A DNA stretch of 48,295 bases. Source: an uncultured Pseudomonadales bacterium (lineage in GTDB: Bacteria > Patescibacteriota > Microgenomatia > UBA1400 > CG1-02-47-37). A program made the position numbers and the translations under genes. Each line of letters begins with the position of its first letter. The first letter of the stretch is position 1. The notes beneath the pieces are model-generated. The model did not search any database. It saw only the letters and a list, made by a program, of their open reading frames with translations, and had not been told where the DNA came from. Positions 1 to 40,390 of the stretch are shown here, piece after piece. Location of the stretch: contig CAYICL010000003.1 of the NCBI GenBank assembly GCA_964361885.1, positions 1 to 48,295 on the forward strand, written 5' to 3'.

Positions 1-1002
1 GAAAACGTCCTTTACATCCTCGATCTTTATGACAGCGTTGCCCGGATCGAACAGCGCTTTTTAAGCCCGACCGTGGACACCGAAAAACTGACCACCAACT
101 TTATCTCGCCTTTAGCCGCTGACGGCCAAATTACCATCAACGGTTCTGTTGAAATTCACGGTGACGCCAGTATTTCCGGAACTTTAACTGCCAATGAAAT
201 CAAATCTTCTACCACTGACAGCTTAAAAGAAAAAATCGCTGATATTATTGCCAGTCTGGATCAGCCTAAGGCCACACCGCCAAAGTCAGCCTCAATGTCA
301 GCCACTCCCGAGGTGTTTGCAGATTTCACCTCGGGAGTGAGTTCACCTTCTGCCTACTTGGATATTGACAGTCTTAATGCTGACTCCGGCTTTTTCTCCG
401 AATACTTGGCTGTCTTAGGTTCAGCCGCCATTACCAGCTTAAATGTTACCAATAGTTTAACCATTAATAACCAGTTGTTACTGACTGCCAACTCGCTTTC
501 AGGTCTGGATAATCAACTTTTCCTCCAACCTTCAGGCACCGGCTCGATCAACTTTCTGGCAGGCTTAATGACTTTGTCTGACGCCGGTCTGGTTACCATC
601 ACCGGTAACTTAACTGTCACCGGCACTTTAACCGCTACTTATATCGCTCCTCCATTAGAGCAAGATCTGCAAATTAACATTGCCAGCCAATCGGCTGTGG
701 CAATCTATAATCAAATATCCGGCTCTCAAATAGCTTCAATTGATGCTTCCGGTTCAGCCTCTTTTAACCGATTAAATCTAAAAGCCTCAGGCTCAACCTC
801 GATTCTGGCCGGCGAAAATCACGTGATGATTAACTCCGATGCTCTCACTCAAACTTCCCAAATTATCGTTACCTTTACTTCCGACTACAAACCGGCCTCA
901 AAATACTGGGTGGTTAAAGAACCTGCCAACCAACACTTTACTCTCTTTGTCAACTACCCGGTCAACTCCGACACTTTTCTCGACTGGTTGATTATTAACT
1001 AG
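1..1002 (+). CDS. Secreted/surface repeat protein, 5'-partial (frame 1 is open from the window edge; the listed GTG at 73 is probably internal)
   Basis: Frame 1 has no stop from nt 1. The protein is Thr/Ser/Gly/Asn-rich with repeats such as SGTLTANEI and TGNLTVTGTLTAT, which look beta-helix or fibre-like. It carries an in-frame 37-nt palindromic cassette at 303-339. Confidence 0.5.
   Translation, partial: ENVLYILDLYDSVARIEQRFLSPTVDTEKLTTNFISPLAADGQITINGSVEIHGDASISGTLTANEIKSSTTDSLKEKIADIIASLDQPKATPPKSASMSATPEVFADFTSGVSSPSAYLDIDSLNADSGFFSEYLAVLGSAAITSLNVTNSLTINNQLLLTANSLSGLDNQLFLQPSGTGSINFLAGLMTLSDAGLVTITGNLTVTGTLTATYIAPPLEQDLQINIASQSAVAIYNQISGSQIASIDASGSASFNRLNLKASGSTSILAGENHVMINSDALTQTSQIIVTFTSDYKPASKYWVVKEPANQHFTLFVNYPVNSDTFLDWLIIN
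303..339. repeat. Family-2 palindromic doublet CACTCCCGAGGTG-N11-CACCTCGGGAGTG (37 nt) in the surface-protein gene
   Basis: Read directly. Encodes TPEVFADFTSGV. Confidence 0.9.
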
Positions 1003-3058: not shown

Positions 3059-4342
3059 ATGCGCCGCACTCCGCGTTTACTTATTGCCATTATCTTTATT
3101 ATCGTCTTGGCCGCCGGGATTACTCTGGCGATCAAAATTGCCAAAGGCTACCGGCCTTCTTTAAAAAACAAGTCCTTAGAAGGCACCGGCTTACTCTCCG
3201 CCAACTCCACTCCCCGGGGCGCCAGTGTCTTTATTAACGATAAACTTACCACCGCTACTGACGACACCTTGAACTTACCTCCCGGCGAATACCGGGTCAA
3301 AATCGCTCAGGATGGCTACATTTCCTGGGAAAAAACCCTGGTTTTGGTGCCTGAACTGGTGACTCAAACCAACGCCCGCCTCTTTCCTTCTGTACCCGAT
3401 TTAAAACCCTTAACCTTTTCCGGGGCTTTAAACGCCATCCCTTCGCCGGATGGTCAAAAATTAGTCTTTGGTGTTGACAATGCTACTACTGATACCAAAA
3501 ATGGTCTGTATGTTGTTGACCTCCAAGATCGGCCCTTTTCTCTCAACTCTGATCCCCGCCAAATCACCCGTAACTCGCAAAAATATGACTTTATTCATGC
3601 TCCGCTCACCTGGTCTCCTGACTCTTCCCAAATTTTGGCCACTTTAAATTCCGGCCAGTTGGACGAAACCAATGTTTTAATCAGCAGCTCATCCTTTAAC
3701 GATATTGCTGATTTAAAAGATGTCACTGCCCGTTTGCCGGTCATTATTAAAGAATGGCAGGATCTTTTAGATAAAAAAGATCATGAAAGAATGATCGTCT
3801 TACCGGAATTCATCCAAAAACTGGCCACTCAGTCAGCCAAATTAGCTTACTTTTCTCCGGACGAAGATAAGTTGATGTATACTGCCACTGCTGAAATTAC
3901 TATCCCGGAAAAACTCATCACTCCTCTACCCTCCAACTCCACTCAAACTGAAACCAGAAACTTAAAACCGGGCAAAATCTATATCTATGATATTGAAGAA
4001 GACAAAAACTTTCTTATTGCCGACGCTCCCCAGCCGCCAACTAAACCGGCTCCTGCTAAACCGGCTCCTGTTGATCAATTAAAACAAATTGCCAACCGTT
4101 ATTCGGCTATTTTTACCCAACCGATCCAGTGGTATCCTGACTCCCGCCACGTTATTATTGTCGAAGCTGACAAAATCATTATCAGTGAATATGACGGCAC
4201 CAACCGCCAAACTGTTTATGCCGGCCCTTTTGCTCAAAACTTCGCCTTCCCTTGGCCCAACGGCAGCCGCCTGGTTATTCTGGCTTCTCTAAACGGCGGC
4301 ACTAACCTATCTCCTAATCTCTACTCGATCAACCTGAAGTAA
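3059..4342 (+). CDS. PEGA-domain protein with TolB-like beta-propeller repeats
   Basis: N-terminal TM helix; PEGA-like segment STPRGASVFINDK...LPPGEYRVKIAQDGYISWEKTLVL; repeated WSPDSSQ and WYPDSRH propeller-type motifs; KPAPA/KPAPV tandem duplication at 4043-4072. Confidence 0.65.
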   Translation: MRRTPRLLIAIIFIIVLAAGITLAIKIAKGYRPSLKNKSLEGTGLLSANSTPRGASVFINDKLTTATDDTLNLPPGEYRVKIAQDGYISWEKTLVLVPELVTQTNARLFPSVPDLKPLTFSGALNAIPSPDGQKLVFGVDNATTDTKNGLYVVDLQDRPFSLNSDPRQITRNSQKYDFIHAPLTWSPDSSQILATLNSGQLDETNVLISSSSFNDIADLKDVTARLPVIIKEWQDLLDKKDHERMIVLPEFIQKLATQSAKLAYFSPDEDKLMYTATAEITIPEKLITPLPSNSTQTETRNLKPGKIYIYDIEEDKNFLIADAPQPPTKPAPAKPAPVDQLKQIANRYSAIFTQPIQWYPDSRHVIIVEADKIIISEYDGTNRQTVYAGPFAQNFAFPWPNGSRLVILASLNGGTNLSPNLYSINLK

Positions 4343-4358
4343 TTAACTTAGGTTACTT

Positions 4359-4907
4359 ATGCCGCAAAGTTATACAAAACTCTTTACTTACTGGTTTAGT
4401 TTAATAATTTACGATTTAACTGTGGAGTTTTGCCAACGTTGGATAAAAAGCTACAAACTTTCCGAACAAATGACCGGCGCCGCTCGCTCCGGAAAACAAA
4501 ATATCGTTGAAGGTTCTGAAGACATGTCAACTTCTTTAAAAACCGCCATTAAACTAACTAATATCGCTAAAGGCTCATTAGAAGAGTTACTCTCTGACTA
4601 CGAGGATTTTTTACGTCAAAGAAATCTGCTAATATGGACTAAAACCGACTCGCGCGTTCTTTTTTGGCGGGCAAAATTCGCCCGTCTCGTAAGAAACTTA
4701 AGTAACTTAAGAACCTTAGGTGGCTTACGAGGGCAGCTAACGCTGCCCAAAAATCCTGAAGAAGCCGCCAACCTACTTCTAACCCTTTGCCATCAAGCTT
4801 CATTTTTACTTAACAAACAAGTACAATCACTTATCAAAAAACACACCCAAGAAGGCGGATTTACTGAAAAACTTTATCATGCCAGAAAAACATATGCGCA
4901 TCATTAA
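4359..4907 (+). CDS. Four-helix-bundle protein (23S rRNA intervening-sequence protein family) with suffix domain
   Basis: AARSGKQNIVEGSE...IAKGSLEELLSDYEDFLRQRNL...PEEAANLLLTLCHQASFLLNKQ...EGGFTEKLYHARK matches my memory of this family. Confidence 0.65.
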   Translation: MPQSYTKLFTYWFSLIIYDLTVEFCQRWIKSYKLSEQMTGAARSGKQNIVEGSEDMSTSLKTAIKLTNIAKGSLEELLSDYEDFLRQRNLLIWTKTDSRVLFWRAKFARLVRNLSNLRTLGGLRGQLTLPKNPEEAANLLLTLCHQASFLLNKQVQSLIKKHTQEGGFTEKLYHARKTYAHH

Positions 4908-5991
4908 AACGACTCAAAAAAATGTCATTAGTGAGACCGTTCAAGTCTTAAAACTTGGCGGTCTGGTCATCTATCCTACCGAAACCTGCTATGGCGCCGG
5001 CGTTGACCCCACCAATCAGCCGGCAGTTAATAAACTTTTAGCCTACAAACATAAGCGCGAAGGCCGGCCGATATCTGTGGCCGTGGCTGATGAACCAATG
5101 GCCAGCAAATACGTTAAATTAAATCCCACGGCTAAAAATTTATATCAAAAATTCCTGCCCGGACCATTGACCGTTGTTTCCGCCGGCCGTCATCAACTCG
5201 CCTCTGGCATCGAGTCAGAACTCGGCACTCTTGGTATCCGGATTCCTGACCACCTGCTGGCTTTGGCAATTGTCAAAAAATTCGGTAAACCAATCACTGC
5301 CACCTCTGCCAATGTTTCTTATAAACCCCGGCCTTACTCGATCAAACAACTCTTAAAAAATACTTCCAAAAAACAGCAAAGCTTAATTGATTTAATTATT
5401 GACGCCGGCCAGTTACCCAAACGGCCGGTGTCCACCATTGTCGATACCACTCTTGACGACCCGCTAATCATCCGCCAAGGCAAAATTACTCTATCACCCC
5501 TATCACACCTCGGGAGTGTGATCAGGGTGATCAGTAAATCGCCGCAGCAAACCATTAAGTTGGCTCAAACCCTTTGTCTTAAATACTGGAAAGACCTGCA
5601 GACCAAACCGATTATTTTTCTTCTCATCGGCGAGTTAGGCACTGGCAAAACCCAGTTTTGCAAAGGCATCGGAAAATTCTTACAAATCAAGGCCAATATC
5701 AATTCCCCCACGTATACTATTGAAAAAGAATACGACTTTAACCGTTATCAAGTTAAAGGCAGGTTTTTGCACTTAGACACCTGGCGTTTACAAAACATCG
5801 AGGAATTTGATCAACTAAACCTTAAAGCCCGCTTCCTGCCTAAAACCGTCATCGCTGTTGAATGGGCTTCAAGAACCTTAAAACCCCTTTTAGATCTGGC
5901 TCGTCAAACCCAGACTAAAGTCATTATGGTTAAACTGCAAACCGTTTCCGGATCTTCTGCATCTCTTCGGCAGATAACCGTCTGCTGCTAG
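4879..5991 (+). CDS. tsaC: Fusion protein: L-threonylcarbamoyladenylate synthase (TsaC/YrdC/Sua5 domain) plus t6A ATPase TsaE
   Basis: N-terminal half has LKLGGLVIYPTETCYGAGVD (YrdC motif). C-terminal half has the P-loop GELGTGKTQFCKGIG, SPTYTIEKEY and HLDTWRL (TsaE motifs). An alternative start ATG at 4894 (MRIIKT) is plausible. Confidence 0.8.
   Translation: MPEKHMRIIKTTQKNVISETVQVLKLGGLVIYPTETCYGAGVDPTNQPAVNKLLAYKHKREGRPISVAVADEPMASKYVKLNPTAKNLYQKFLPGPLTVVSAGRHQLASGIESELGTLGIRIPDHLLALAIVKKFGKPITATSANVSYKPRPYSIKQLLKNTSKKQQSLIDLIIDAGQLPKRPVSTIVDTTLDDPLIIRQGKITLSPLSHLGSVIRVISKSPQQTIKLAQTLCLKYWKDLQTKPIIFLLIGELGTGKTQFCKGIGKFLQIKANINSPTYTIEKEYDFNRYQVKGRFLHLDTWRLQNIEEFDQLNLKARFLPKTVIAVEWASRTLKPLLDLARQTQTKVIMVKLQTVSGSSASLRQITVCC
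5493..5533. repeat. 41-nt imperfect palindrome centred on CACCTCGGGAGTG, forming the TsaC-TsaE inter-domain linker
   Basis: ATCACCCCTATCACAC-CTCGGGAG-TGTGATCAGGGTGATCA. The arms match at 14 of 16 positions. Confidence 0.75.
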
Positions 5992-6331
5992 CCGCTTTCC
6001 GCCAACCTTCCCAGATTTTATCCCAGCTTCCTTTTGTATCCGGCATTAAATGTAAATGGGCATGGGCTACTTCATTGCCGATAGTCACGCTCACCACCAT
6101 TTCTTTGCCGGAAACAGTTTGCATTTTTTTAACGATTTTCTGGGCCACTTTGTATAAGTCACCAATACCTTCAAGCTCCCAAACCCAACGATAATGTTTT
6201 TTAGGAATTACTAAAGTATGGCCATCCACTATCTGGGAAATATCCAAAAAAGCCAACCAATCCTTATCCTCGTAAATTTTATAGCAGGGAATCTCTCCTT
6301 TAACAATCTTGCAAAAAATGCAACTGGTCAT
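5930..6331 (-). CDS. HIT (histidine triad) family nucleotide hydrolase
   Basis: CIFCKIVKGEIP...DGHTLVIPKKH...HAHLHLMP histidine-triad motif. Confidence 0.85.
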   Translation of the reverse strand: MTSCIFCKIVKGEIPCYKIYEDKDWLAFLDISQIVDGHTLVIPKKHYRWVWELEGIGDLYKVAQKIVKKMQTVSGKEMVVSVTIGNEVAHAHLHLMPDTKGSWDKIWEGWRKAASSRRLSAEEMQKIRKRFAV

Positions 6332-6339
6332 ATATAAAG

Positions 6340-6345
6340 TATAAT
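6340..6345 (+). promoter_or_regulatory. -10 box (TATAAT) 7 nt upstream of ATG 6353 (tsaD), suggesting a leaderless start
   Basis: Read directly in the 21-nt HIT/tsaD divergent spacer. Confidence 0.35.
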
Positions 6346-6352
6346 ACCATAT

Positions 6353-7473
6353 ATGAAATCGCCATTAATTTAGCCATCGACACTTCCTGCGACGAAACCT
6401 GCGCCAGTGTTTCTTTTGGCCGCCGGATTTTATCCAATGTCATCTCTTCCCAAATCAACATTCACCAAAAATATGGCGGCGTTGTCCCGCACCTGGCCAA
6501 ACGGGCCCATCAGGAAAAAATCGAGCCTGTCGTTAAAGAGGCAATAAAAAGGTCTGTCCTTAAAGGACTCAAGTTGCGTCAGCAACCTGAAAAGAATTCA
6601 AAAAGGACAGACCTTTCTGGAATAAGCGCCATCGCCGTCACCGTCGGTCCGGGCTTGGCTCCGGCCCTTGAAGTTGGTATTAACTTTGCCAAAAATCTTG
6701 CCCGCCGGCTCAAACTCCCGTTAATTGCTGTCAATCATATGGAAGGCCACCTCTTATCCTGCCTTGCCTTGCCTCACACTCCCGGAGTGAAATCTTCAAA
6801 CACTCCGGGAGTGAAATTCCCCGCTCTCGGCCTGCTCGTCTCCGGTGGTCACACCCAGTTGGTTTTAGTCAAATCCATTGGTCTATACCAACTTTTGGGT
6901 GAAACTTTGGATGATGCAGCCGGTGAAGCTTTGGATAAGCTTAGTAAAATGTTAAAACTCGGCTATCCCGGCGGCCCGATTATCGAACAACTAGCTAAAC
7001 AATCCGCCGGCTGGCGGACCAGCACCATCCCCTTACCCGTCCCTTTGCAACATTCCCAAGACTTAAACTTCTCTTTTTCCGGTTTAAAAACCGCGGCTCT
7101 TTATACCATTCAAAAAGTTTACAAAGGACGGACCTTTGTAAAAAAACAATTCACTTACGACTTATGCGCTGCTTTCCAAACTGCCATTGCTAAAAGCTTA
7201 ACTGTCAAACTCCAAAAAGCGATTGAGCAATACCAACCAAAAAGCATTTTGTTAGGCGGCGGGGTGTTTTCCAATTTATATTTCCGTCGCCAAATCCGCT
7301 CGGCTGTTAAACCATTTCAACTACCTCTTTATCTTCCCTATTCCAAAAAACTTTTTACTGACAATGCTGCCATGATTGCCGTTCCCGCTTACTTTAAATT
7401 TCTTAAAAAAGACTTTGTCAAAAACATTAAGACCCTGGACCGCCAACCAAACCTTAACTTTGATACAATATAG
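6353..7473 (+). CDS. tsaD: tRNA N6-adenosine threonylcarbamoyltransferase TsaD (Kae1/Gcp family), with apparent 1-nt frame problem at codon 2-3
   Basis: The conserved N-terminus LAIDTSCDETCASV...GGVVPHLAKRAH...AVTVGPGL lies in frame 1 upstream of the listed TTG at 6574. HMEGH metal site and SGGHTQL are present. The only nearby ATG (6353) is one base out of frame. Confidence 0.8.
6548..6616. repeat. 69-nt palindromic cassette inside tsaD (14-bp perfect inverted repeat AAAGGTCTGTCCTT / AAGGACAGACCTTT), REP-core variant
   Basis: Read directly. Inner hairpin GTTGC-GTCA-GCAAC at 6573-6586. Encodes KRSVLKGLKLRQQPEKNSKRTDL. Confidence 0.85.
6777..6813. repeat. Family-2 doublet variant CACTCCCGGAGTG-N11-CACTCCGGGAGTG in tsaD
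   Basis: Read directly. Encodes TPGVKSSNTPGV. The spacer is the reverse complement, 10 of 11 nt, of the 303-339 spacer. Confidence 0.85.
7117..7143. repeat. REP copy (GTTTACAAAGGACGGACCTTTGTAAA) inside tsaD, in frame (VYKGRTFVK)
   Basis: Direct reading. 10-bp stem TTTACAAAGG/CCTTTGTAAA around ACGGA. Confidence 0.9.
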
Positions 7474-7477
7474 GCAA

Positions 7478-7552
7478 GTCCCTATAGCTCAACGGATAGA
7501 GCCCAGGTTTCCTAAACCTGTAATGAAGGTTCAATTCCTTCTGGGGACACCA
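7478..7552 (+). tRNA. tRNA-Arg (anticodon CCT), CCA encoded
   Basis: Manual cloverleaf: acceptor GTCCCTA/TGGGGAC, D arm GCTC-AACGGATA-GAGC, anticodon arm CAGGT-TTCCTAA-ACCTG, T arm GAAGG-TTCAATT-CCTTC, discriminator A plus CCA. Confidence 0.85.
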
Positions 7553-7553
7553 C

Positions 7554-8048
7554 TTATCGCTTCACTACCTTGCCAGCTGAGTTTAAGCATTCCGGCACCA
7601 TATCTTTAGGAAAATCATAACCTTCAATTTTGGCACACTCCGGCTGAGCTTGACCAGCATAAACAGCCACCCAACCAGAAGTAGTTTTCGCCGCCAGCCA
7701 GTAAGCACCGCCGACCGCCTCATACTCTTTGATATTACCGGTAGCGTGATTAGCCACGCGCCGGTTAATCGTAACTTCTGCCATGGCTTCGTTCAGATGG
7801 GTAAAGCGATAAACTGCTTGTTTAATTAACTCTGTTTCGTCAACAATAACCGCTGGAACCAATGAAGGACTGGGACTGGATCTCGGTACCAACGAAGGCT
7901 CAACTGACGATTCCGGGGAAACGCTGGCTAAAGGACTGGGTGAAACAGTCGGCTGCTGCTGCTTCCCAAAATAAAAAGCACCCATTCCCACCAAACTCAA
8001 AAGTCCCAAGCAAATAATAATTACCAAAACTTTGGTTTTTTTATCCAT
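7554..8048 (-). CDS. Membrane-anchored hypothetical protein with Ser/Pro-rich linker
   Basis: N-terminal TM helix (VLVIIICLGLLSLVGMGAFYF), then an SPSP-rich low-complexity linker and a small globular C-terminal domain. Confidence 0.55.
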   Translation of the reverse strand: MDKKTKVLVIIICLGLLSLVGMGAFYFGKQQQPTVSPSPLASVSPESSVEPSLVPRSSPSPSLVPAVIVDETELIKQAVYRFTHLNEAMAEVTINRRVANHATGNIKEYEAVGGAYWLAAKTTSGWVAVYAGQAQPECAKIEGYDFPKDMVPECLNSAGKVVKR

Positions 8049-8091: not shown

Positions 8092-8167
8092 CGGGGTGTA
8101 GCGCAGTTGGTAGCGCGCTACGTTCGGGACGTAGAGGCCGGCGGTTCGAATCCGCCCACCCCGACCA
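8092..8167 (+). tRNA. tRNA-Pro (anticodon CGG), CCA encoded
   Basis: Manual cloverleaf: acceptor CGGGGTG/CACCCCG, D arm GCGC-AGTTGGTA-GCGC, anticodon arm CTACG-TTCGGGA-CGTAG, T arm GGCGG-TTCGAAT-CCGCC, then A plus CCA. Confidence 0.85.
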
Positions 8168-8832: not shown

Positions 8833-9306
8833 CTATCCTTCCAACTCTTCCTTTGAGTAAAGCAAACACTCGCTGGCACTGGTCCACTCAATCACTTCTT
8901 CATCTGCGAAAAGTAAGCCCTTTTCCTTATTAGCTGTCTCCTCTGAATCTGAAGCATGAATCAAGTTCAACTGTTGGCTAATGGAAAAATCACCCCTGAT
9001 ACTGCCAGCTTCTGCTTCTCTGCCTGATGTCGTCCCCACTAATTTTCTTGCTACTGCTACCGCATCAATCCCCTGCCATAACATGGCGATAATCGGCGCT
9101 GACTTCATAAACTTCTTTAAATCAGTAAAAAAACTCTTGTCTTTATGATGTGAATACCATTCATCCAGGATTTCATCTGTTAATCGCATCATCTTCAACC
9201 CCGCCAACTTTAAACCTTTGTGCTCAAACCTCTGGACTATCTCACCCAATAGACCCCTTTGTAATCCGTCCGGTTTTACTAACACCACTGACTGTTTCAC
9301 TGTCAT
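8833..9306 (-). CDS. ndk: Nucleoside diphosphate kinase
   Basis: VLVKPDGLQRGLLGEIVQRFEHKGLKL, GSIRGDF and NLIHASDS (active-site His). Confidence 0.85.
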   Translation of the reverse strand: MTVKQSVVLVKPDGLQRGLLGEIVQRFEHKGLKLAGLKMMRLTDEILDEWYSHHKDKSFFTDLKKFMKSAPIIAMLWQGIDAVAVARKLVGTTSGREAEAGSIRGDFSISQQLNLIHASDSEETANKEKGLLFADEEVIEWTSASECLLYSKEELEG

Positions 9307-14189: not shown

Positions 14190-15968
14190 CTACATCCGCT
14201 CCGGCGTGGCAATCCCCAGTAAACCCAAACCTTTTTTAATTATCTCGGCCGTTGCCTGAGTCAGCCACAGCCTGAACTCTTTTACCTCTTTTTCCGCCTT
14301 TAAAATCCGGTGCCGGTTGTAAAACCCATTATACTTTTGAGCCAAATCATATAAGAAATTGGCTACCAGATTTGGCGCCAACTCCGCCGCCGCCTGGCTG
14401 ACCACCTCTTCATACCGATACAACGTCCGCAGTAATAGGTCTTCCTCTTTTGAATAAGGTCCGACCTTGAGCGCCTTTGGCGCGTCCCGACGAATGTCGG
14501 GACTCAAGGTCGGACCTTTACTCAGCACGCTCTTGGCTCTGGCGTATGTATACTGCAGATACGGCCCTGAGTTACCCTCTAAACTAATCGATTCGTCAAA
14601 ATCAAAAGCCATGTCTTTGGTCCTGCCCACTTTTAAAATACTGTATTTAACTGCTCCCACTCCGATTTTTTCCGCTACTTCGTCAATGGAGGCTGTTTCC
14701 ACTTCGCTCTCACCTGACCGTTTCATAATTTCTTTAGTTTTTCCCACTGCTTGATCCAGCAAATCATCAATATATACCACCATACCTGTTCTTGAACTCA
14801 TCCTGCCCTTACCCTTAAGACTCATCCAGCCATAACTCACATGCTGACACTCTTTGATCTTCACTATCCCTAGCTGTTCGCAGACCGCAAACATCTGTTT
14901 TAAAGCTAATGACTGCTCCGGTCCGATCACCCAAAAAAGCTTATCCGGTTTAAAGGTCTCCTTTTTTAATTTGGTCAAAGCTAAATCCTGAGTAATATAC
15001 AAAGCCGTACCGTCTGCTTTAATCACCACCGTGTCCGGAATGCCGTACTTGGTTAAATCCGTGACGATTGCCCCTTCTTTTCCTTTTCTAAACACGCCTT
15101 TCTTCAAACCTAGCTCCACCAAGTCCTTCCCTTGCTGATAATGCTCATGCTCATGCCAAACCCTGTCCCATTTATTTCCCAGTCTCTTCAGCGTCAACTC
15201 CTGCCCCTGGTAGGAATATTCCAGTACCTTTGCCCATAAAGCCCGGTTCTTCTTGTCTCCGGCTTCCCAATCTATCACCATTTGCCTGACCGCCTTTTCT
15301 GTATCAGCTGTTTTACAATCCTCACTGGCCTTAACATATAACTCGTCTACAAATCTATCCGGCCTCATCTTGGCATTTTCCGGAGTCTGCCATTCATCCT
15401 GATGGTCATACCAATAATTAAGATCAATCATTTGCTTCTTTTCTTTGTGGCCAAACCTTAAATATCCCCACATTAATTTGGCAATGGCAATTCCCCGGTT
15501 ATTATCAACACAATCTCTGACCACCTGGCAACCTAAGGCTTCGAAAATATTCGCCAAGGCCATACCGATAATATTGTTGGTTAAATGTCCTAAATGCATG
15601 GCTTTATTAGGATTAGGTGACGTGTGTTCCACTAAATATTTTTTCCCCTGATAAGGTTTCTTCTCATCACCAATTAGCACTTGATTAATTTGATTGATAA
15701 GAACGTCACTTTTGATTGATATATTAATAAAACCTGCTCCGGCAACACTGATTTTTGAAGCTATTTTTTTCATGCTATCTTCGGCTTTTAACTTAGCTGC
15801 AATTGCTTCAGCTGTTTCTCGGGGTGACTGGCTTTTTAACGCCACATTGCAGCTATAATCCCCAAACGCCATGTTCTCCGGATGCTCCACAATAAACTTG
15901 GCTTTTTCTAATTTGAGTTCTTTTAAAATCTTCTCTATATTCTTATAAATCTGATGTGATAATTCCAT
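14190..15968 (-). CDS. argS: Arginine--tRNA ligase
   Basis: HTSPNPNKAMHLGHL (HIGH region), MSSRTG (KMSKS-like) and a C-terminal anticodon-binding domain ending ...ERM. Carries a 63-nt in-frame palindromic cassette at 14456-14518. Confidence 0.9.
   Translation of the reverse strand: MELSHQIYKNIEKILKELKLEKAKFIVEHPENMAFGDYSCNVALKSQSPRETAEAIAAKLKAEDSMKKIASKISVAGAGFINISIKSDVLINQINQVLIGDEKKPYQGKKYLVEHTSPNPNKAMHLGHLTNNIIGMALANIFEALGCQVVRDCVDNNRGIAIAKLMWGYLRFGHKEKKQMIDLNYWYDHQDEWQTPENAKMRPDRFVDELYVKASEDCKTADTEKAVRQMVIDWEAGDKKNRALWAKVLEYSYQGQELTLKRLGNKWDRVWHEHEHYQQGKDLVELGLKKGVFRKGKEGAIVTDLTKYGIPDTVVIKADGTALYITQDLALTKLKKETFKPDKLFWVIGPEQSLALKQMFAVCEQLGIVKIKECQHVSYGWMSLKGKGRMSSRTGMVVYIDDLLDQAVGKTKEIMKRSGESEVETASIDEVAEKIGVGAVKYSILKVGRTKDMAFDFDESISLEGNSGPYLQYTYARAKSVLSKGPTLSPDIRRDAPKALKVGPYSKEEDLLLRTLYRYEEVVSQAAAELAPNLVANFLYDLAQKYNGFYNRHRILKAEKEVKEFRLWLTQATAEIIKKGLGLLGIATPERM
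14456..14518. repeat. 63-nt nested palindromic cassette inside argS (15-bp perfect inverted repeat AAGGTCCGACCTTGA / TCAAGGTCGGACCTT enclosing two hairpins)
   Basis: Read directly. Inner hairpins GCGCC-TTT-GGCGC (14471-14483) and GTCCCGAC-GAAT-GTCGGGAC (14484-14503). Confidence 0.9.
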
Positions 15969-15981
15969 ATTCTTATTTATT

Positions 15982-16725
15982 TTACTCCTTCACCACTCCG
16001 GCTCTTAATAAATACTTCTTGGCTTTTTCTATCGGCCAGTCTGCCGGTAATAAATCAGGCGGCAGCATCGGATCTAAAATCAAGGTTTCCAAATAATCCC
16101 GATAAACCTTTTTTAAAAACTCCTCCCGTTTCACCGACTCTTTGATCCCAAATCTGGTTACCAACCGGTCAATCACCTGGTTGTACCTGTTGGCAATCGC
16201 TTCTATGCCCCAAACCTTTTCCGCTAACTTCTTGGCCTCAACCAGATACTTCTGTTTTGATTCCAGTAAATACACCTTAGAACCCAAATCTTTAAGATCC
16301 AAATAGCTTAAAAACTCCTTGCTGTAATCATAAGGGGAAATATAGGTGCTGTTTTGCAAACAGCCAAAATCCATCTTAATTAACTGGCGTCTTAATAAAT
16401 CCCTTAACCGTCTTTGTTTTTCAGCCACATCAAAAATCACCACCCGCCAAAATCCGTCCCATGCCTGACCTACCTGTTTTAACACCGGTTTTAACATCAT
16501 CAAATGTTTTCTGCCGGCTCCGGTTAACCGGAAGTTTGGCCGGCCTTCAACCAACACTTGCTGCACATAACCCTCCCGCACCATTCTGGCTACCAAACCC
16601 CGGTACTTTTTTCTCGAATAACCCGGCGGTGTCCATAAAAACAGCTTATCTGTCTGATAAGCTCTGGCAAAGTCGCCGCCGATAGCCAACCCCCAAAGTA
16701 ACCGGTCACGCATCAATATTTTCAT
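15982..16725 (-). CDS. PaaX-like transcriptional regulator (winged helix plus PaaX-type domain)
   Basis: GYVQQVLVEGRPNFRLTGAGRKHL (wHTH-like), followed by WDGFWRVVIFDVAEKQRRLRDLLRRQLIKMDFGCLQNSTYISP. Confidence 0.5.
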   Translation of the reverse strand: MKILMRDRLLWGLAIGGDFARAYQTDKLFLWTPPGYSRKKYRGLVARMVREGYVQQVLVEGRPNFRLTGAGRKHLMMLKPVLKQVGQAWDGFWRVVIFDVAEKQRRLRDLLRRQLIKMDFGCLQNSTYISPYDYSKEFLSYLDLKDLGSKVYLLESKQKYLVEAKKLAEKVWGIEAIANRYNQVIDRLVTRFGIKESVKREEFLKKVYRDYLETLILDPMLPPDLLPADWPIEKAKKYLLRAGVVKE

Positions 16726-16753: not shown

Positions 16754-18157
16754 ATGAAAATCGTTATTGGCTACCCGCCGATTAAATCTTCAAAAGGCGT
16801 TCCGCTTTTATCCCAAAACCGCCAGTTCCAGTGGTTTTCTTCCCCTACTTACGTCTACCCGGTTATTCCTGCCTCAGCCGCCACTTTATTAAAAACCAAT
16901 GGTTATCAAGTCAGCTGGCTGGACGGTATTGCCGAAAACTGGAGCTATAACCAATGGTTTAACCAATTACAAGCCGAGTCGCCAGACTTGCTCTTTATCG
17001 AAACCAAAACTCCGGTGATCAAACAACACTGGCAGATCATCAAACATCTAAAATCTAAAATCCCTGATCTAAAAATCTGTTTGGCCGGTGACCACGTCAC
17101 TGCCTTACCCAAAGAATCGTCTAAAAACTGCCCGGTTGATTATATTGTTGTTGGCGGCAACTATGATTTATCTTTACTTTCTATAGCAAACAGTATCAAC
17201 AAAACTAAACAAAAAGTTTACCAAGGACGGACCTTTGTAAATTTACCATTCATCGATCGGCAGTTAACCAAATGGCGTCTCTATGCTTACAAAAACGGCA
17301 ACTTTAAATTTACCCCGGCTGCTTACACCATGGCCGGCCGCGACTGCTGGTGGCGTCAAAACGGCGGCTGTACTTTTTGCTCCTGGACCACCCTTTTCCC
17401 CAAATTTATGGTCCGCACTCCAAAAAATCTTTTAGACGAAATCGACCAGCTCATCAAATTAGGCATTAAAGAAGTCTTTGACGATACCGGAACTTTCATG
17501 ACCGGTAACTGGTTAAAACAGTTCTGCCAAGGCATGATCAAGCGTGGCTATAATAAAAAAATCGTTTTTGGCTGCAACATGCGCTTTGGAGTTTTAACTC
17601 AAAAAGACTATTACTTAATGGCCAAAGCCAATTTTAGATTCCTTCTTTTTGGTTTAGAATCAGCCAGTCAAACCACCCTCGACCGCCTAAACAAAGGCAT
17701 TAAAATCAATCAAGTTGAACCAGAATTAAAAATTATTAAATCTGCCGGCGGCCGACTTGAACCTCATGTTACTTGTATGGTCGGCTATCCCTGGGAAAGT
17801 TTAGCCGACGCTCAAAATACCGTTAACTTTACCAAAAATCTCTTTAAAAAAGGCTTAATCAGCTCACTCCAAGCCACCATTGTCATCCCCTATCCCGGCA
17901 CCAAACTCTTTGCCCAAGCCAAGAAAAACCATTGGCTCAAAACTTTGGACTGGAATAAATATGACATGCGCCAACCAATCCTTAAATCCCCTATCCCCGA
18001 TAAAAAACTGATGCAGCTCACCCGGAATATTTACCTTAGCTGTTTCACTCCTCAATTTATTTTCAAAAAATTGCTCTCGATCCGCTCTTTGGCTGACATT
18101 AAATTTTTATTTAGATCGGTCCGAAAATTCGTCGGCCAGCTGCTGGATTTTTCATGA
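16754..18157 (+). CDS. B12-binding-domain radical SAM protein
   Basis: N-terminal Rossmann-like B12-binding region; Cys cluster GRDCWWRQNGGCTFCSW; radical-SAM core (FGLESASQTTLDRLNKG). REP copy in frame at 17216-17241, in the inter-domain linker. Confidence 0.7.
   Translation: MKIVIGYPPIKSSKGVPLLSQNRQFQWFSSPTYVYPVIPASAATLLKTNGYQVSWLDGIAENWSYNQWFNQLQAESPDLLFIETKTPVIKQHWQIIKHLKSKIPDLKICLAGDHVTALPKESSKNCPVDYIVVGGNYDLSLLSIANSINKTKQKVYQGRTFVNLPFIDRQLTKWRLYAYKNGNFKFTPAAYTMAGRDCWWRQNGGCTFCSWTTLFPKFMVRTPKNLLDEIDQLIKLGIKEVFDDTGTFMTGNWLKQFCQGMIKRGYNKKIVFGCNMRFGVLTQKDYYLMAKANFRFLLFGLESASQTTLDRLNKGIKINQVEPELKIIKSAGGRLEPHVTCMVGYPWESLADAQNTVNFTKNLFKKGLISSLQATIVIPYPGTKLFAQAKKNHWLKTLDWNKYDMRQPILKSPIPDKKLMQLTRNIYLSCFTPQFIFKKLLSIRSLADIKFLFRSVRKFVGQLLDFS
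17216..17241. repeat. REP copy (GTTTACCAAGGACGGACCTTTGTAAA) inside the radical SAM gene, in frame (VYQGRTFVN)
   Basis: Direct reading. One mismatch to consensus. Confidence 0.9.
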
Positions 18158-23583: not shown

Positions 23584-23605
23584 CTCTTTAGTATACTATA
23601 GAGGT

Positions 23606-23998
23606 ATGATTCAAATTAAAGTCGGCGGTAAACTGATTGCTTTAATTATCAAAGCTAAAACTCAACCCAAGATAAATCAGTTTATAACTGATCCTCACAA
23701 TCCTCTCCAGCTGGGCTTTCTCCGATTTTCTAAAAATCGCCAAGTAAAGCCCCACCAACACCGCGCTCTTGATAAAACCACTCACCAAAATCAGGAATTT
23801 ATTTATGTTGTCTCCGGCCAAATTCTGGCTGAATTTTTTTACAAAGGACGGACCTTTGTAAAACATCTGCTTAATCCCGGAGATTGCTTATTGCAACTAC
23901 AAGGCGGCCATGGGTTTACCATGCTTAAACCCACCAAGCTCATTACCATTAAGCAAGGTCCTTACTCCAGCCGCCAGCGCGAAAAAATCGAAATATAG
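23606..23998 (+). CDS. Cupin-fold protein (WbuC/sugar-modifying cupin-like)
   Basis: I place the start at ATG 23606 (MIQIKVGG) rather than the listed 23426, which would run through the divergent gene's start. HQH...QEFIYVVSG...GDCLL...GGHGF is a cupin pattern. REP copy in frame at 23838-23863. Confidence 0.5.
   Translation: MIQIKVGGKLIALIIKAKTQPKINQFITDPHNPLQLGFLRFSKNRQVKPHQHRALDKTTHQNQEFIYVVSGQILAEFFYKGRTFVKHLLNPGDCLLQLQGGHGFTMLKPTKLITIKQGPYSSRQREKIEI
23838..23863. repeat. REP copy inside the cupin gene, in frame (FYKGRTFVK)
   Basis: TTTACAAAGGACGGACCTTTGTAAAA read directly. Confidence 0.9.
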
Positions 23999-24966
23999 TC
24001 TTCGGCTATCTTATCCCAGCTAAACTGTTTGAGCCACTGCTCTGGTCGATACCGCTTTTTTGATAAAGCTAATTTTAATTTTTCCACGTACTCTTCTCCC
24101 CAAACATCTTTGACATAAATCCCATAATCACCCAATATTTCTCTTCTTAACTCATCATCCGTCGCTACTACCGGCAAACCTGAAGCCAGCGCCTCTAAAT
24201 AGACAATGCCAAACGCTTCGGTCGAATCGCTGACTAAAGTAAACACATCCGCTGCTCGATAGACCGCCGGCATCGCTTCATGTTTAAATTTTTTCCCTCC
24301 TCCGGCCCACAACAAATTTACCGCTCCGAAGCCCTGCCTTGCCGGCAGGCAGGCTTGGCGAAGGGCGGCTACCGCCCTTCTAGTCGCTTCCACCCGTTTA
24401 TATTTATCTTCCGAAGCAACGCATAAAATTATTGGCCCCTTCAATTTTAGGTCCAATTTCCCACCCTCAGGCTTAAACCGTTGTAAATTTACTCCGTTAG
24501 GAATCACTTCAATCCTGACTCCCCGGCCGTAAAACTTTTTCGCCCAGCGCCGATTTCTTTCGCTTAAAGCCACAAACACATCCGGCCGCATCAGTAAATT
24601 CCACCCGTCGCACCAACCTAAACCCGCCTGTCCGCTAATCACCAGTTTGGCACCGGTTTGCCAGCAAAACAAACGGCATAATAAACTCTGCCAGCCGCCG
24701 TTAAATGGCATGATTATATCCGGTCGCCACGGCTTTAATTTTTCCAGCGCCTGCCGCGTTTCCCACCGCATTGTCCGGTGATACTTGTCAATCATCAAAG
24801 TCTTTAACCAAGGACGGACCTTTGTAAAAGATTGCCAGTCGACTGAATTGACACTAATTACTTTTACCTGGTGCTGCTTTTGCCAGCGCCGACTCAGTTC
24901 TTTCACTACCGTCTCTACCCCCCGATCAATTCGGCCACTGGTAAACGATAAAACCGCAATTTTCAT
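23962..24966 (-). CDS. GT4 (GT-B fold) glycosyltransferase
   Basis: MKIAVLSFTSGRIDRGVETVV...SDSTEAFGIVYLEALASGLPVVATDD (E-x7-E type motif). Confidence 0.8.
   Translation of the reverse strand: MKIAVLSFTSGRIDRGVETVVKELSRRWQKQHQVKVISVNSVDWQSFTKVRPWLKTLMIDKYHRTMRWETRQALEKLKPWRPDIIMPFNGGWQSLLCRLFCWQTGAKLVISGQAGLGWCDGWNLLMRPDVFVALSERNRRWAKKFYGRGVRIEVIPNGVNLQRFKPEGGKLDLKLKGPIILCVASEDKYKRVEATRRAVAALRQACLPARQGFGAVNLLWAGGGKKFKHEAMPAVYRAADVFTLVSDSTEAFGIVYLEALASGLPVVATDDELRREILGDYGIYVKDVWGEEYVEKLKLALSKKRYRPEQWLKQFSWDKIAEDYISIFSRWRLE
24803..24829. repeat. Degenerate REP copy inside the GT4 gene (minus strand reads FTKVRPWLK)
   Basis: TTTAACCAAGGACGGACCTTTGTAAAA. The left arm is altered relative to consensus. 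Confidence 0.8.
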
Positions 24967-35546: not shown

Positions 35547-36291
35547 GTTTACAAAGGACGGACCCTTGTAAACTATGTATAATACAAATATGCCTGCCAA
35601 AAATATTATCAAAACCTATATTCAAAACGGTTATTATCACCTTTATAATCGCGGAGTCAACAAACGAAACATCTTTAAAAATCAGCAAGATTACGGTGTT
35701 TTTCTTGGCTACTTGAAACAATATCTCTCCCCAAATGATAAAAATCCTTGTTTAAGAAACATCACTGTTAAAAACAAAGTTTATAAAATTCTGACTCCCC
35801 CATGTAAAAACTATCATCATGATATCAAACTCCTGGCTTACTGTTTAATGCCTAATCATTTTCATTTATTAATTAAACAATTTTCCGAAAGAGGCATTGC
35901 CTCACTGATGAAATCTCTCGGCACCCGCTACACCATGTACTTTAACAAACGTTACCAACGCACCGGTCCTTTATTCCAAAGCCGTTATAAGGCCGTTTTA
36001 ATTGATAACGAAAACCAGCTGCTTCATCTCTCCCGCTATATTCATCTTAATCCCCTACCCAAAAACCCAACTCAACCCTCTAGTTATCCTAATTATCTTG
36101 GTCTAAACCATGCCACTTGGATTCAGCCCCAAGAAATCCTTACTTTCTTTAAAACCGCCCGCAAAACCAATCTGAATGATATTAGTTCATATCAAAGTTT
36201 TATTGAAGACTATTCTGAACCGCCTAAAACATTTTTAGAAAACCTTACCCTTGATTAGATTGTTTACAAAGGACGGACCCTTGTAAACTAT
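35547..36291 (+). mobile_element. REP/RAYT unit: IS200-like Y1 (HUH) transposase gene bracketed by two identical 27-nt (30-nt with flank) palindromic REP copies
   Basis: GTTTACAAAGGACGGACCCTTGTAAACTAT occurs at 35547-35576 and 36262-36291 in direct orientation. The unit fills the gap between two convergent gene ends exactly. Confidence 0.8.
35575..36258 (+). CDS. REP-associated tyrosine transposase (RAYT; IS200/IS605 TnpA-like Y1 HUH enzyme)
   Basis: YHLYNRGVNKRNIF, HUH motif in LMPNHFHLLIK, FQSRYKAVLI and the catalytic-Tyr region LSRYIHLNP. The start may be ATG 35590 (MPAKN), which lies 6 nt after a TATAAT. Confidence 0.8.
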   Translation: MYNTNMPAKNIIKTYIQNGYYHLYNRGVNKRNIFKNQQDYGVFLGYLKQYLSPNDKNPCLRNITVKNKVYKILTPPCKNYHHDIKLLAYCLMPNHFHLLIKQFSERGIASLMKSLGTRYTMYFNKRYQRTGPLFQSRYKAVLIDNENQLLHLSRYIHLNPLPKNPTQPSSYPNYLGLNHATWIQPQEILTFFKTARKTNLNDISSYQSFIEDYSEPPKTFLENLTLD

Positions 36292-39814: not shown

Positions 39815-40390
39815 TTAATAAACCGCTACCTTTTCCTTAATCGCTTCATACACATTACTTTTCACCGCTTTTTTTGTCAGCAACTCCTCCACTGACCCAT
39901 ACGGCCGGTTTGAAATAATCTTTTCTGCCGTGGCCGGCCCCACTCCCCAAAGCGTATCCAGCTCGGCGCTTGACGCGGTATTGATGTTTACAAAGGACGG
40001 ACCTTTGTAAACATTTTGAGAAGGTCCGTCCTTATTGGATTCTTCTTGACTCGGAATATATACCTTCTGGCCGTCAACAATTTTGGCAGCCAAATTTAAG
40101 TTTTTATTCAACCATTCCCTGTCTGCTTTTTCTCCTAAGCCGCCGGCGACGACTAAGGCATCATTCATTCTGGCTCCAAGGCTTAACTTATACAATCCGG
40201 GCTTCATCACTGCTCCGGCTACATCCACATACACATACACCTCTTTTTCCTGCTCTACGATCTCTACCCCTCTATCAGTCGCTTTATTGCTGATCAATAT
40301 TGCTGAAAACACTCCGACAATCAATAACAGTATTCCCGCCAATCCCACGGTCAACCAATATGGTTTGGCTTTCAATTCCTTTATCCTCAT
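39815..40390 (-). CDS. comEA: ComEA DNA receptor (SLBB domain plus helix-hairpin-helix)
   Basis: VAGAVMKPGLYKLSLGARMNDALVVAGG (SLBB) and INTASSAELDTLWGVGPATAEKIISNRPYGSVEEL (HhH). The REP doublet sits in the inter-domain linker. Confidence 0.8.
   Translation of the reverse strand: MRIKELKAKPYWLTVGLAGILLLIVGVFSAILISNKATDRGVEIVEQEKEVYVYVDVAGAVMKPGLYKLSLGARMNDALVVAGGLGEKADREWLNKNLNLAAKIVDGQKVYIPSQEESNKDGPSQNVYKGPSFVNINTASSAELDTLWGVGPATAEKIISNRPYGSVEELLTKKAVKSNVYEAIKEKVAVY
39986..40033. repeat. REP doublet (full REP 39986-40012 plus inverted core AAGGTCCGTCCTT at 40021-40033) inside comEA
   Basis: Read directly. Encodes NKDGPSQNVYKGPSFVN on the minus strand. Confidence 0.9.

Follow-up and report, generated by a model that had tools for sequence, protein, structure and literature searches.

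Why should the gene of an essential protein, TsaD, hold three palindromic segments of DNA, every one of them in frame? The question is raised by a stretch of 48,295 nt (contig CAYICL010000003.1 of assembly GCA_964361885.1, positions 1-48,295 of the forward strand), which we term the window in its full length. It comes from a tiny groundwater bacterium of the Patescibacteria, whose nearest named relatives, judged by TsaD, are Candidatus Beckwithbacteria. The three segments, or cassettes, of its tsaD gene are probably copies of two short, hairpin-forming families of dispersed repeats, of the kind described as repetitive extragenic palindromic (REP) sequences and as REPINs, their doublets forming hairpins. 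These repeats are likely to be tied to a transposase resembling the REP-associated tyrosine transposases (RAYTs), and to have been filtered by selection into in-frame insertions within protein loops.

Three palindromic cassettes in an otherwise intact tsaD gene

The product of the host gene passed the threshold of the TsaD equivalog TIGR03723 (331.3 bits against a cut-off of 296.1), and solved TsaD structures of the Protein Data Bank (PDB) match it over its full length (best E 4e-61). The gene neighbours that of a fusion between TsaC and TsaE (Table 1). A first-pass annotation of this DNA had read the catalytic motifs HMEGH and GPG as intact, and so they are: NHMEGH, GPGL and SGGHT are invariant across 32 orthologues, as are H127 and H131, and all conserved TsaD motifs are kept, including those that bind metal and ATP. 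The window protein resembles bacterial TsaD (YgjD/Gcp; Escherichia coli 4YDU, Aquifex 8IEY, Thermotoga 6N9A) from end to end. It differs from these proteins by three extra loop segments encoded by repeat DNA, which appear as gaps of about 16, 10-11 and 3-7 residues at cassettes 1, 2 and 3 when it is aligned with the solved structures. This supports the original proposal that dispersed palindromic repeats lengthen, in frame, variable loops of an otherwise intact tsaD. An AlphaFold model, to be taken as a rough guide (mean pLDDT 65.7), displays the TsaD fold (TM about 0.7 to 4YDU, 8IEY and 6Z81); it places cassette 2 in a low-confidence loop and makes cassette 1 a helical extension followed by another low-confidence loop. 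The protein has presumably retained TsaD activity.

Cassette 1 is bounded by a perfect 14-bp inverted repeat, AAAGGTCTGTCCTT (6548-6561) and AAGGACAGACCTTT (6603-6616), with 41 nt between the arms and an inner hairpin GTTGC-GTCA-GCAAC at 6573-6586. This architecture, proposed at first reading, was recovered both by a repeat search and by folding, and its core AAAGGACAGACCTTT is indeed one base away from the REP core AAAGGACGGACCTTT. It encodes the peptide KRSVLKGLKLRQQPEKNSKRTDL. Cassette 2 encodes TPGVKSSNTPGV. Cassette 3, read as TTTACAAAGG-ACGGA-CCTTTGTAAA, folds into a 10-bp stem closed by a loop of 5 nt, and encodes VYKGRTFVK. Folded as single-stranded DNA, cassettes 1, 2 and 3 reach -17.9, -16.1 and -8.6 kcal/mol, with z values of -5.5, -6.7 and -5.75, respectively. 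All three preserve the frame and contain no stop codon. A further small palindrome at 7010-7023 may be a fourth, decayed REP-like element.

Metagenome assemblies may create chimeras, and mis-assembly had been a concern for this locus. One error of the assembly type is indeed present in the window's tsaD, where a run of T has lost one letter. However, independent assemblies carry the cassettes: a contig from another sample of the Hainich groundwater series (L089), retrieved by a metagenome scan with the cassette-1 spacer, agrees with the window at 99.93% over positions 4067-7013, cassettes 1 and 2 included, which excludes mis-assembly there, and tsaD cassettes are present in five other sources besides the window. 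Artefacts of this sort are, together with the ordinary protein loops considered below, an exceedingly improbable explanation. The only gap between L089 and the window is the T run near the tsaD start, at 6369-6371, where the window has TTT, a 1-nt deletion, and where L089 and all orthologues have TTTT. In the window the start reads ATG AAA TCG CCA TTA ATT TAG, with a stop after six codons; L089 reads ATGAAATCGCCATTAATTTTAGCC, which restores an intact start, MKSPLILAIDTS, like that of the orthologues. The frameshift is thus either an assembly error or a strain variant. A programmed frameshift was considered and rejected, since L089 simply has one T more. Because of this upstream deletion, the public tsaD call (P0001, 299 aa) begins at a TTG at 6574, inside cassette 1. 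This is a warning for annotation: a single-nucleotide error led a gene caller to misplace a start codon into a cassette. The frameshifted start, the conservation of cassette 1 DNA and the REP-flanked Y1 gene, both discussed below, had all been missed by the first-pass annotation.

Repeat families of the window and a transposase flanked by one of them

The palindromes of tsaD belong to families that are over-represented far above chance, as measured in the 48-kb window rather than in the whole genome. The REP core, with up to two mismatches allowed, is found 13 times where 0.20 copies are expected, a count reached by none of 100 shuffles (0/100), and the family-2 arm seven times where 0.33 is expected. 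The same REP 27-mer, of consensus GTTTACAAAGGACGGACCTTTGTAAAC, is found at ten unrelated loci. There is about one element per 3 kb. The window hairpins are stable as single-stranded DNA, with z ranging from -4.2 to -10.3; the extreme is the doublet of the ArgRS gene, which folds more stably than any other (-32.5 kcal/mol, z -10.3). Inverted doublets that fold as long hairpins are cassette 1 and those of ArgRS, ComEA and LeuRS. Twelve of the 15 elements lie inside open reading frames (ORFs), all 12 in frame and free of stops. Their hosts are TsaD, the TsaC-TsaE linker, ArgRS, a radical SAM protein, a GT4 glycosyltransferase, ComEA, LeuRS (three copies) and the ORF 73-1002. On the forward strand, all six singlets and both copies that flank the transposase gene expose an ACGGA loop; we do not claim REP orientation as a signal of the replication strand, since loci L001-L003 carry both orientations within a few kb.

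Could these segments be ordinary loops of lineage-specific proteins, maintained by selection on the protein? The peptide of cassette 1 is basic, and one may speculate that it could contact tRNA. However, the same words of DNA recur in unrelated genes, in both orientations, in several frames and also in intergenic DNA, and even the third codon positions of cassette 1 are conserved, which argues against an explanation at the protein level.

The way the repeats are read is telling in this respect. Direct reading of the canonical REP 27-mer finds four of its six frames open and TAA in the other two. Only open frames are used, giving VYKGRTFV and VYKGPSFV in the window and LQRSVLC in L001 and L002. 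The copy of the GT4 gene falls in a frame that has TAA in the canonical repeat, and one of its arms is changed to CCTTGGTTAAAG exactly at that place, removing the stop. The choice of frames and this repaired copy agree with copies being seeded at random and then sorted by selection. With about 97% of the window taken up by ORFs, and with most intergenic gaps shorter than 50 nt, there is almost no extragenic space, which would be why surviving copies are mostly intragenic.

A pair of identical 27-nt REPs brackets the gene of a Y1/HUH tyrosine transposase, located 28 kb from tsaD, in a unit of 742 nt. The protein matches Pfam Y1_Tnp (E 2.6e-13), with its HUH motif in LMPNHFHLL and a candidate catalytic tyrosine in SRYIHLNP. 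HUH and YIH are invariant in 21-38 homologues, and YHxYNRG, LMPNHFH and RxGxLFQ are also kept. A phmmer search of the PDB returned no match. An AF2 model built with database homologues (pLDDT 82) has as its best Foldseek match 4er8_A (E 3e-5), a structure of the REP-associated transposase of E. coli (TnpA-REP) in complex with a REP hairpin, followed by the transposases of ISDra2, IS608 and IS200. An orthologue in the locus L090 (GCA_026397255.1) is 81% identical, syntenic and also flanked by REPs, within a shared neighbourhood ordered GT2 - transposase - TPR ... ComEC - ComEA - LeuRS.

The association of repeat and transposase extends to other lineages. Among 80 homologous loci from metagenome-assembled genomes (MAGs) of Patescibacteria, 63 have one and the same segment, 13 nt or longer, in both flanks of the gene, taken as 200 nt on each side; control placements elsewhere in the same loci did so once in 326. 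Most of these segments are hairpins particular to a lineage, built as (T)GACAAGG-n-CCTTGTC(A); TGACAAGGTCTAACCTTGTCA and CTAAGGGTCCGACCCTTAG are examples of such hairpins, and some of the segments are inverted doublets. The window core AAGGACGGACCC also flanks homologues in one Curtissbacteria and one Woesebacteria locus. Where one MAG has several paralogues of the transposase, these share 50-68% identity, and their hairpins differ. As far as comparison of sequences can tell, these are the properties that define RAYTs (PMC5581495), and not those of an insertion sequence.

Dense repeats inside genes may also be recognition signals spread over a genome, such as DNA uptake sequences or binding sites of a chromosome organiser. 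Uptake sequences of Pasteurellaceae and Neisseria are dense and intragenic at weakly constrained positions. The density and location of the window elements, inside genes at weakly constrained positions, would suit such a role, as would the conservation of REP arms at orthologous sites; homologues of ComEC and ComEA are encoded in the window, with competence genes beside LeuRS, and bacteria of this type depend on imported nucleotides. Yet uptake sequences arise by point substitution and not by the addition of 9-23 codons, several unrelated families coexist here and change between close lineages, and the repeats are strongly and specifically linked to a Y1 transposase. Recognition signals are therefore a very improbable explanation.

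How, then, might the repeats have spread through RAYT-like activity? Our model is taken from the established behaviour of E. coli TnpA-REP and of the IS200/IS605 family. By analogy, the enzyme would recognise the folded hairpin in single-stranded DNA, then cleave and rejoin DNA beside the hairpin, seeding copies in trans. The REP family, represented in tsaD by cassette 3 as a singlet and by cassette 1 as an inverted doublet of a one-base variant, would be the cognate repeat of the window transposase. Family 2, that of cassette 2, would follow the same route with a mobilising enzyme encoded outside the window. Selection would purge the copies that shift the frame, add a stop or hit structured parts of proteins. 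Survivors would be stop-free insertions of 9-23 codons in surface loops and inter-domain linkers, including those of the essential proteins TsaD, LeuRS and ArgRS, where they would be translated as extra loop residues.

Table 1. Repeat elements of the window and the genes that carry or adjoin them
Feature	Positions	Strand	Remarks
tsaD coding sequence	6353-7473	+	host gene of three cassettes; matches TIGR03723 and PDB TsaD
Cassette 1	6548-6616	+	69 nt, 23 codons; REPIN-like inverted doublet of two REP-core variants
Cassette 2	6777-6813	+	family-2 hairpin; 13-nt arms CACTCCCGGAGTG / CACTCCGGGAGTG, 100% complementary; 11-nt loop
Cassette 3	7117-7143	+	canonical REP singlet GTTTACAAAGGACGGACCTTTGTAAAA; 27 nt, 9 codons
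Small palindrome GCTGG-CGGA-CCAGC	7010-7023	+	at the window-specific SAGWRTS insertion of the alignment; seen as a hairpin in a terminator scan
RAYT-like Y1/HUH tyrosine transposase gene	35590-36258	+	222 aa; alternative ATG at 35575
REP copy GTTTACAAAGGACGGACCCTTGTAAAC	35547-35573	+	fills the 28-nt gap upstream of the transposase gene
Second, identical REP copy	36262-36288	+	3 nt past the transposase stop
REPIN-like doublet AAGGTCCGACCTTGAG...CTCAAGGTCGGACCTT in ArgRS gene (- strand)	14456-14518		63 nt, in frame; two inner hairpins
REP singlet in radical SAM gene	17216-17242	+	encodes VYQGRTFVN
REP singlet	23837-23863	+	in the 378-nt gap 23584-23961 between two - strand genes
REP singlet in GT4 glycosyltransferase gene (- strand)	24803-24829	+	canonical TAA frame
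REP doublet in ComEA-like gene (- strand)	39984-40040		arms conserved at the orthologous L090 site
LeuRS gene	40387-42786	-	three cassettes: one REP doublet, two family-2 hairpins
Family-2 hairpin in LeuRS	40726-40762		variant CACCTCCGAGGTG; encodes TSEVKEVHTSEV
REP doublet in LeuRS (- strand)	40880-40935		
Family-2 hairpin in LeuRS	41316-41354		encodes TPEVKKSATSGV
Family-2 hairpin in ORF 73-1002	303-339	+	
TsaC (Sua5/YrdC)-TsaE fusion gene	4879-5991		370 aa; same fusion in L001 and L002

Different palindromes at the same loops of orthologues

If the cassettes are copies of mobile repeats, related genes should differ in what they carry. Orthologues were compared in a protein alignment of 31 TsaD sequences (65-79% identity) and in codon alignments of six fetched tsaD loci. 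Cassette 1 is present only in the six closest TsaD proteins, that of the window and P0002-P0006. Five others (P0016, P0041, P0054, P0067 and P0069) lack it and are otherwise intact TsaD, and other distant orthologues from Patescibacteria have different palindromes at that place. The alignment proposed at first reading as a check on the cassettes was thus carried out, and the extra segment of cassette 1 is not shared by unrelated lineages.

The codon alignments place these differences at the same four loops, where one finds, according to the orthologue, nothing, a singlet, a doublet or another palindrome. At site 1, that of cassette 1, L006 has nothing, L002 a single short palindrome, TTGACAAGGTTCGACCTTGTCAA, and L007 has GACAAGGTCGCACCTTGTC. 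At site 2, family-2 hairpins are found in the window and in L007, and an unrelated palindrome, GGAAGGTTCCGAACCTTCC, in L001. Site 3 has a REP in the window, L001 and L002, a family-2 hairpin in L004 and yet another palindrome in L003 and L006. A fourth site, at the C-terminus, has a REP in L002, REP-like palindromes in L001 and L003, and none in the window. The family-2 variant CACACCCGGTGTG of L004 and L007 has compensated changes in both arms. On a wider scale, 13 out of 120 orthologues have family-2 peptides (TPGV..TPGV or TSEV..TSEV) at site 1, 2 or 3, P0079 contains an identical insert of 18 residues twice, and the length of TsaD varies from 324 to 442 aa in the set. All this appears to be the pattern of mobile DNA sampling a few tolerant loops, and not that of an inherited feature of the protein.

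Other hosts vary in a similar way. The ArgRS loop encodes a different REP-like peptide in L003, LRGRTLQAGKDGP, and has no element in L007; the LeuRS orthologue of L090 has two family-2 hairpins instead of the three cassettes of the window. The inter-domain linker of the TsaC-TsaE fusion has a family-2-like palindrome in the window, at about 5502-5520; in L001 and L002 this place is occupied by a REP that encodes LQRSVLCN.

A purely local origin would see the palindromes as quasi-palindromes, created by template switching during replication and spread by gene conversion, in loops that tolerate change. It would account for the exchange of one palindrome for another at given loops of TsaD and in the linker between TsaC and TsaE, and for the family-2 variants with their compensated arms. 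At the C-terminal site, furthermore, the native KFLKKDFVK has given way to the REP-like FNKGESFVK at the cost of a single additional codon, and the native sequence already contains TTTGTnAAA. Template switching, however, copies neighbouring DNA: it leaves unaccounted for both the occurrence of one 27-mer at ten unrelated loci and the association of flanking segments with a Y1 transposase in 63 of 80 lineages. We consider a local origin improbable.

To be sure, the proposal of REP-type repeats mobilised by a RAYT-like enzyme has points against it, which concern the enzyme, the sites and the copies themselves. The only NCBIfam match of the transposase, REP_Tyr_transpos (NF047646), scores 49.8 bits, below the cut-off of 80. 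With a sequence profile of 21 sequences, which gives weak matches only, ISDra2 TnpA (E 0.0024) comes slightly nearer than 4ER8 (E 0.84). Catalysis by the 222-aa protein is something that we infer by analogy. The flanking REPs are direct in the window and inverted in L090 (9965-9991 and 10678-10704). There is no clean pair of empty and filled sites from which to read the boundaries of insertion, the target site and any duplication, the closest TsaD orthologue being 77-79% identical. The variant core and spacer of cassette 1 had no second copy in about 77 kb of related DNA, the metagenome scan with its spacer returned a single contig, which is the same organism's tsaD, and its peptide had 0 matches at E <= 0.001 among 1.84 billion representative proteins. 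Finally, no enzyme is linked to family 2 in the window, and a lead in L080 failed. That locus has a 45-nt unit, GTTTCCACCTCGGAGGTGGAATTnTATTGACACCTArGGATAT, at 8975-9020 and 16305-16350, in which a TTGACA box comes after a family-2-like palindrome. Only one of the two copies precedes a RAYT homologue; the second has no transposase next to it, and the lead was dropped.

Conservation of cassette 1 and relation to known systems

Among the window, L001, L003 and L004, cassette 1 DNA is 94-99% identical, and 96-100% identical at the third bases of codons; over the 50 flanking codons on each side these values fall to 72-83% and 44-64%, respectively. What few differences there are within the cassette directly follow the left arm or fall outside the arms. 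A segment so much more conserved than its flanks is not accounted for by passive selfish DNA. Nor is it by gene conversion, because the core is a private variant with no other copy found in about 77 kb of related DNA, in the spacer scan of metagenome contigs or in the peptide search. The contrast implies that a constraint probably acts on cassette 1 at the level of nucleotides. In a comparable manner, the ComEA doublet of the window and that of L090 have identical REP arms and differ in spacer and flanks.

What kind of constraint might this be? Cassette 1, and perhaps REP arms generally, could have been domesticated as a cis element, either a DNA site bound by the RAYT-like protein or by a nucleoid protein, or a structure of the tsaD mRNA that would govern its translation or decay, a role that would add to the REPIN origin rather than replace it. 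The conserved third positions suit this idea, and so do the ComEA arms, kept identical despite diverged spacer and flanks. The A-variant core of cassette 1 could not be maintained by conversion from canonical REPs, which have a G in the core. In a terminator scan, furthermore, two segments resembled terminators made of a hairpin and a T run when read antisense: cassette 3 and the right-hand arm of cassette 1. Several facts pull the other way. Against Rfam, the region 6300-7600 matched just the downstream tRNA, with no cassette assigned to a family; the five orthologues named above do without cassette 1 in an otherwise intact TsaD; the comparison is that of four sequences from one clade; and joint pressure on the peptide and on hairpin pairing could produce part of the conservation. 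Domestication in cis seems to us rather doubtful.

The transposase has numerous relatives. There are 589 in Patescibacteria among candidates from GTDB species genomes, and at least 7,979 related proteins at E <= 1e-10. Their sources annotate them only as 'transposase' or 'hypothetical'. A literature search found no paper linking RAYT, REPIN or REP to Patescibacteria or to the Candidate Phyla Radiation. One may tentatively imagine that Patescibacteria hold a large, undescribed branch of REP-RAYT systems, comprising these 7,979 transposases or more, with hairpins located mainly in essential genes, and that some copies, such as cassette 1, became functional cis elements under purifying selection at the nucleotide level. 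If this were true, such a system would be a source of new, heritable loops in core proteins and would retain a part of these loops for a role at the DNA or RNA level.

The phenomenon is of a known kind, with variant features. In common with the REP/REPIN-RAYT systems of E. coli (TnpA-REP, 4ER8) and Pseudomonas fluorescens SBW25, the window has over-represented palindromes, as singlets and inverted doublets, a Y1/HUH gene flanked by repeats, and a syntenic transposase with divergent paralogues, each with its own repeat. REPs and REPINs of Proteobacteria are described as extragenic and mobilised by RAYTs (PMC3116915; PMC5581495). By contrast, 12 of 15 elements are intragenic and in frame here. 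What defines tagged REPs is a tetranucleotide, GTAG or CGTC, at the base of their hairpin (PMC3733652); the window repeat, with its stem GTTTACAAAGG / CCTTTGTAAAC and 5-nt loop, has neither tag. At 222 aa, and with additional segments at its N- and C-termini, the window enzyme also differs from those of the classical systems.

Intragenic REPs have been reported, for example in Opitutus terrae and in Rickettsia conorii (RPE-4 and RPE-6; Di Nocera et al. 2013, PMC3733652), and the Rickettsia palindromic elements (RPEs) are the classic in-frame palindromic insertions (PMC10969869). As in the window, RPEs and intragenic GTAG/CGTC REPs are palindromes inserted in frame in many unrelated housekeeping genes, sometimes several per gene, which add a peptide to a functional protein. 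They are set apart by description: elements of the RPE-1 type measure about 100-150 bp, while the units of the window measure 27, 37 and 69 nt and differ in sequence and host lineage, and a cognate RAYT-like gene adjoins REPs in the window. With IS200/IS605 elements (IS608, ISDra2, IS200) the window unit shares the Y1/HUH fold and motifs, a hairpin at each end of the gene and a size, 742 nt, near that of IS200. Those elements have distinct left and right ends, whereas the end hairpins are here identical and nearly perfect palindromes; moreover, solo hairpins far outnumber the gene, which is syntenic, and the paralogues, 50-68% identical, are not recent copies. What is particular to the present case is then the host phylum, the mostly intragenic copies, the lack of a GTAG/CGTC tag, a distinct branch of transposases and the hyper-conserved cassette 1.

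Much of the variation in length of core proteins from Patescibacteria may stem from repeat DNA rather than from innovation at the protein level, which matters for annotation, alignment and phylogeny in these lineages. The biology of REP-RAYT systems would extend to ultra-small, very gene-dense genomes that offer repeats no extragenic refuge. A REPIN-like element fixed in an essential gene, and more conserved than the codons around it, also bears on whether REPINs and RAYTs benefit their host or are selfish.

Minor observations complete the description of the locus. In five of six loci a TATAAT box lies 6-8 nt 5' of the tsaD ATG (region 6341-6355 in the window), and in L004 it is placed differently. 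This suggests a tsaD mRNA that may be leaderless or nearly so, divergent from the HIT-family gene at 5930-6331. A promoter scan found nothing within tsaD. A tRNA-Arg(CCT) at 7478-7552 begins 5 nt past the tsaD stop, with a tRNA-Pro(CGG) further downstream, at 8092-8167. The orientation of the transposase gene relative to GC skew, compared over 67 loci, was split 32 to 35, without bias. The skew itself is extreme and uniform, from -0.17 to -0.31 on the forward strand across the window regardless of gene orientation, and about 64% of coding bases lie on the G-rich strand; relatives have -0.29 (L079) and -0.30 (L090), and an Amesbacteria locus has +0.38.

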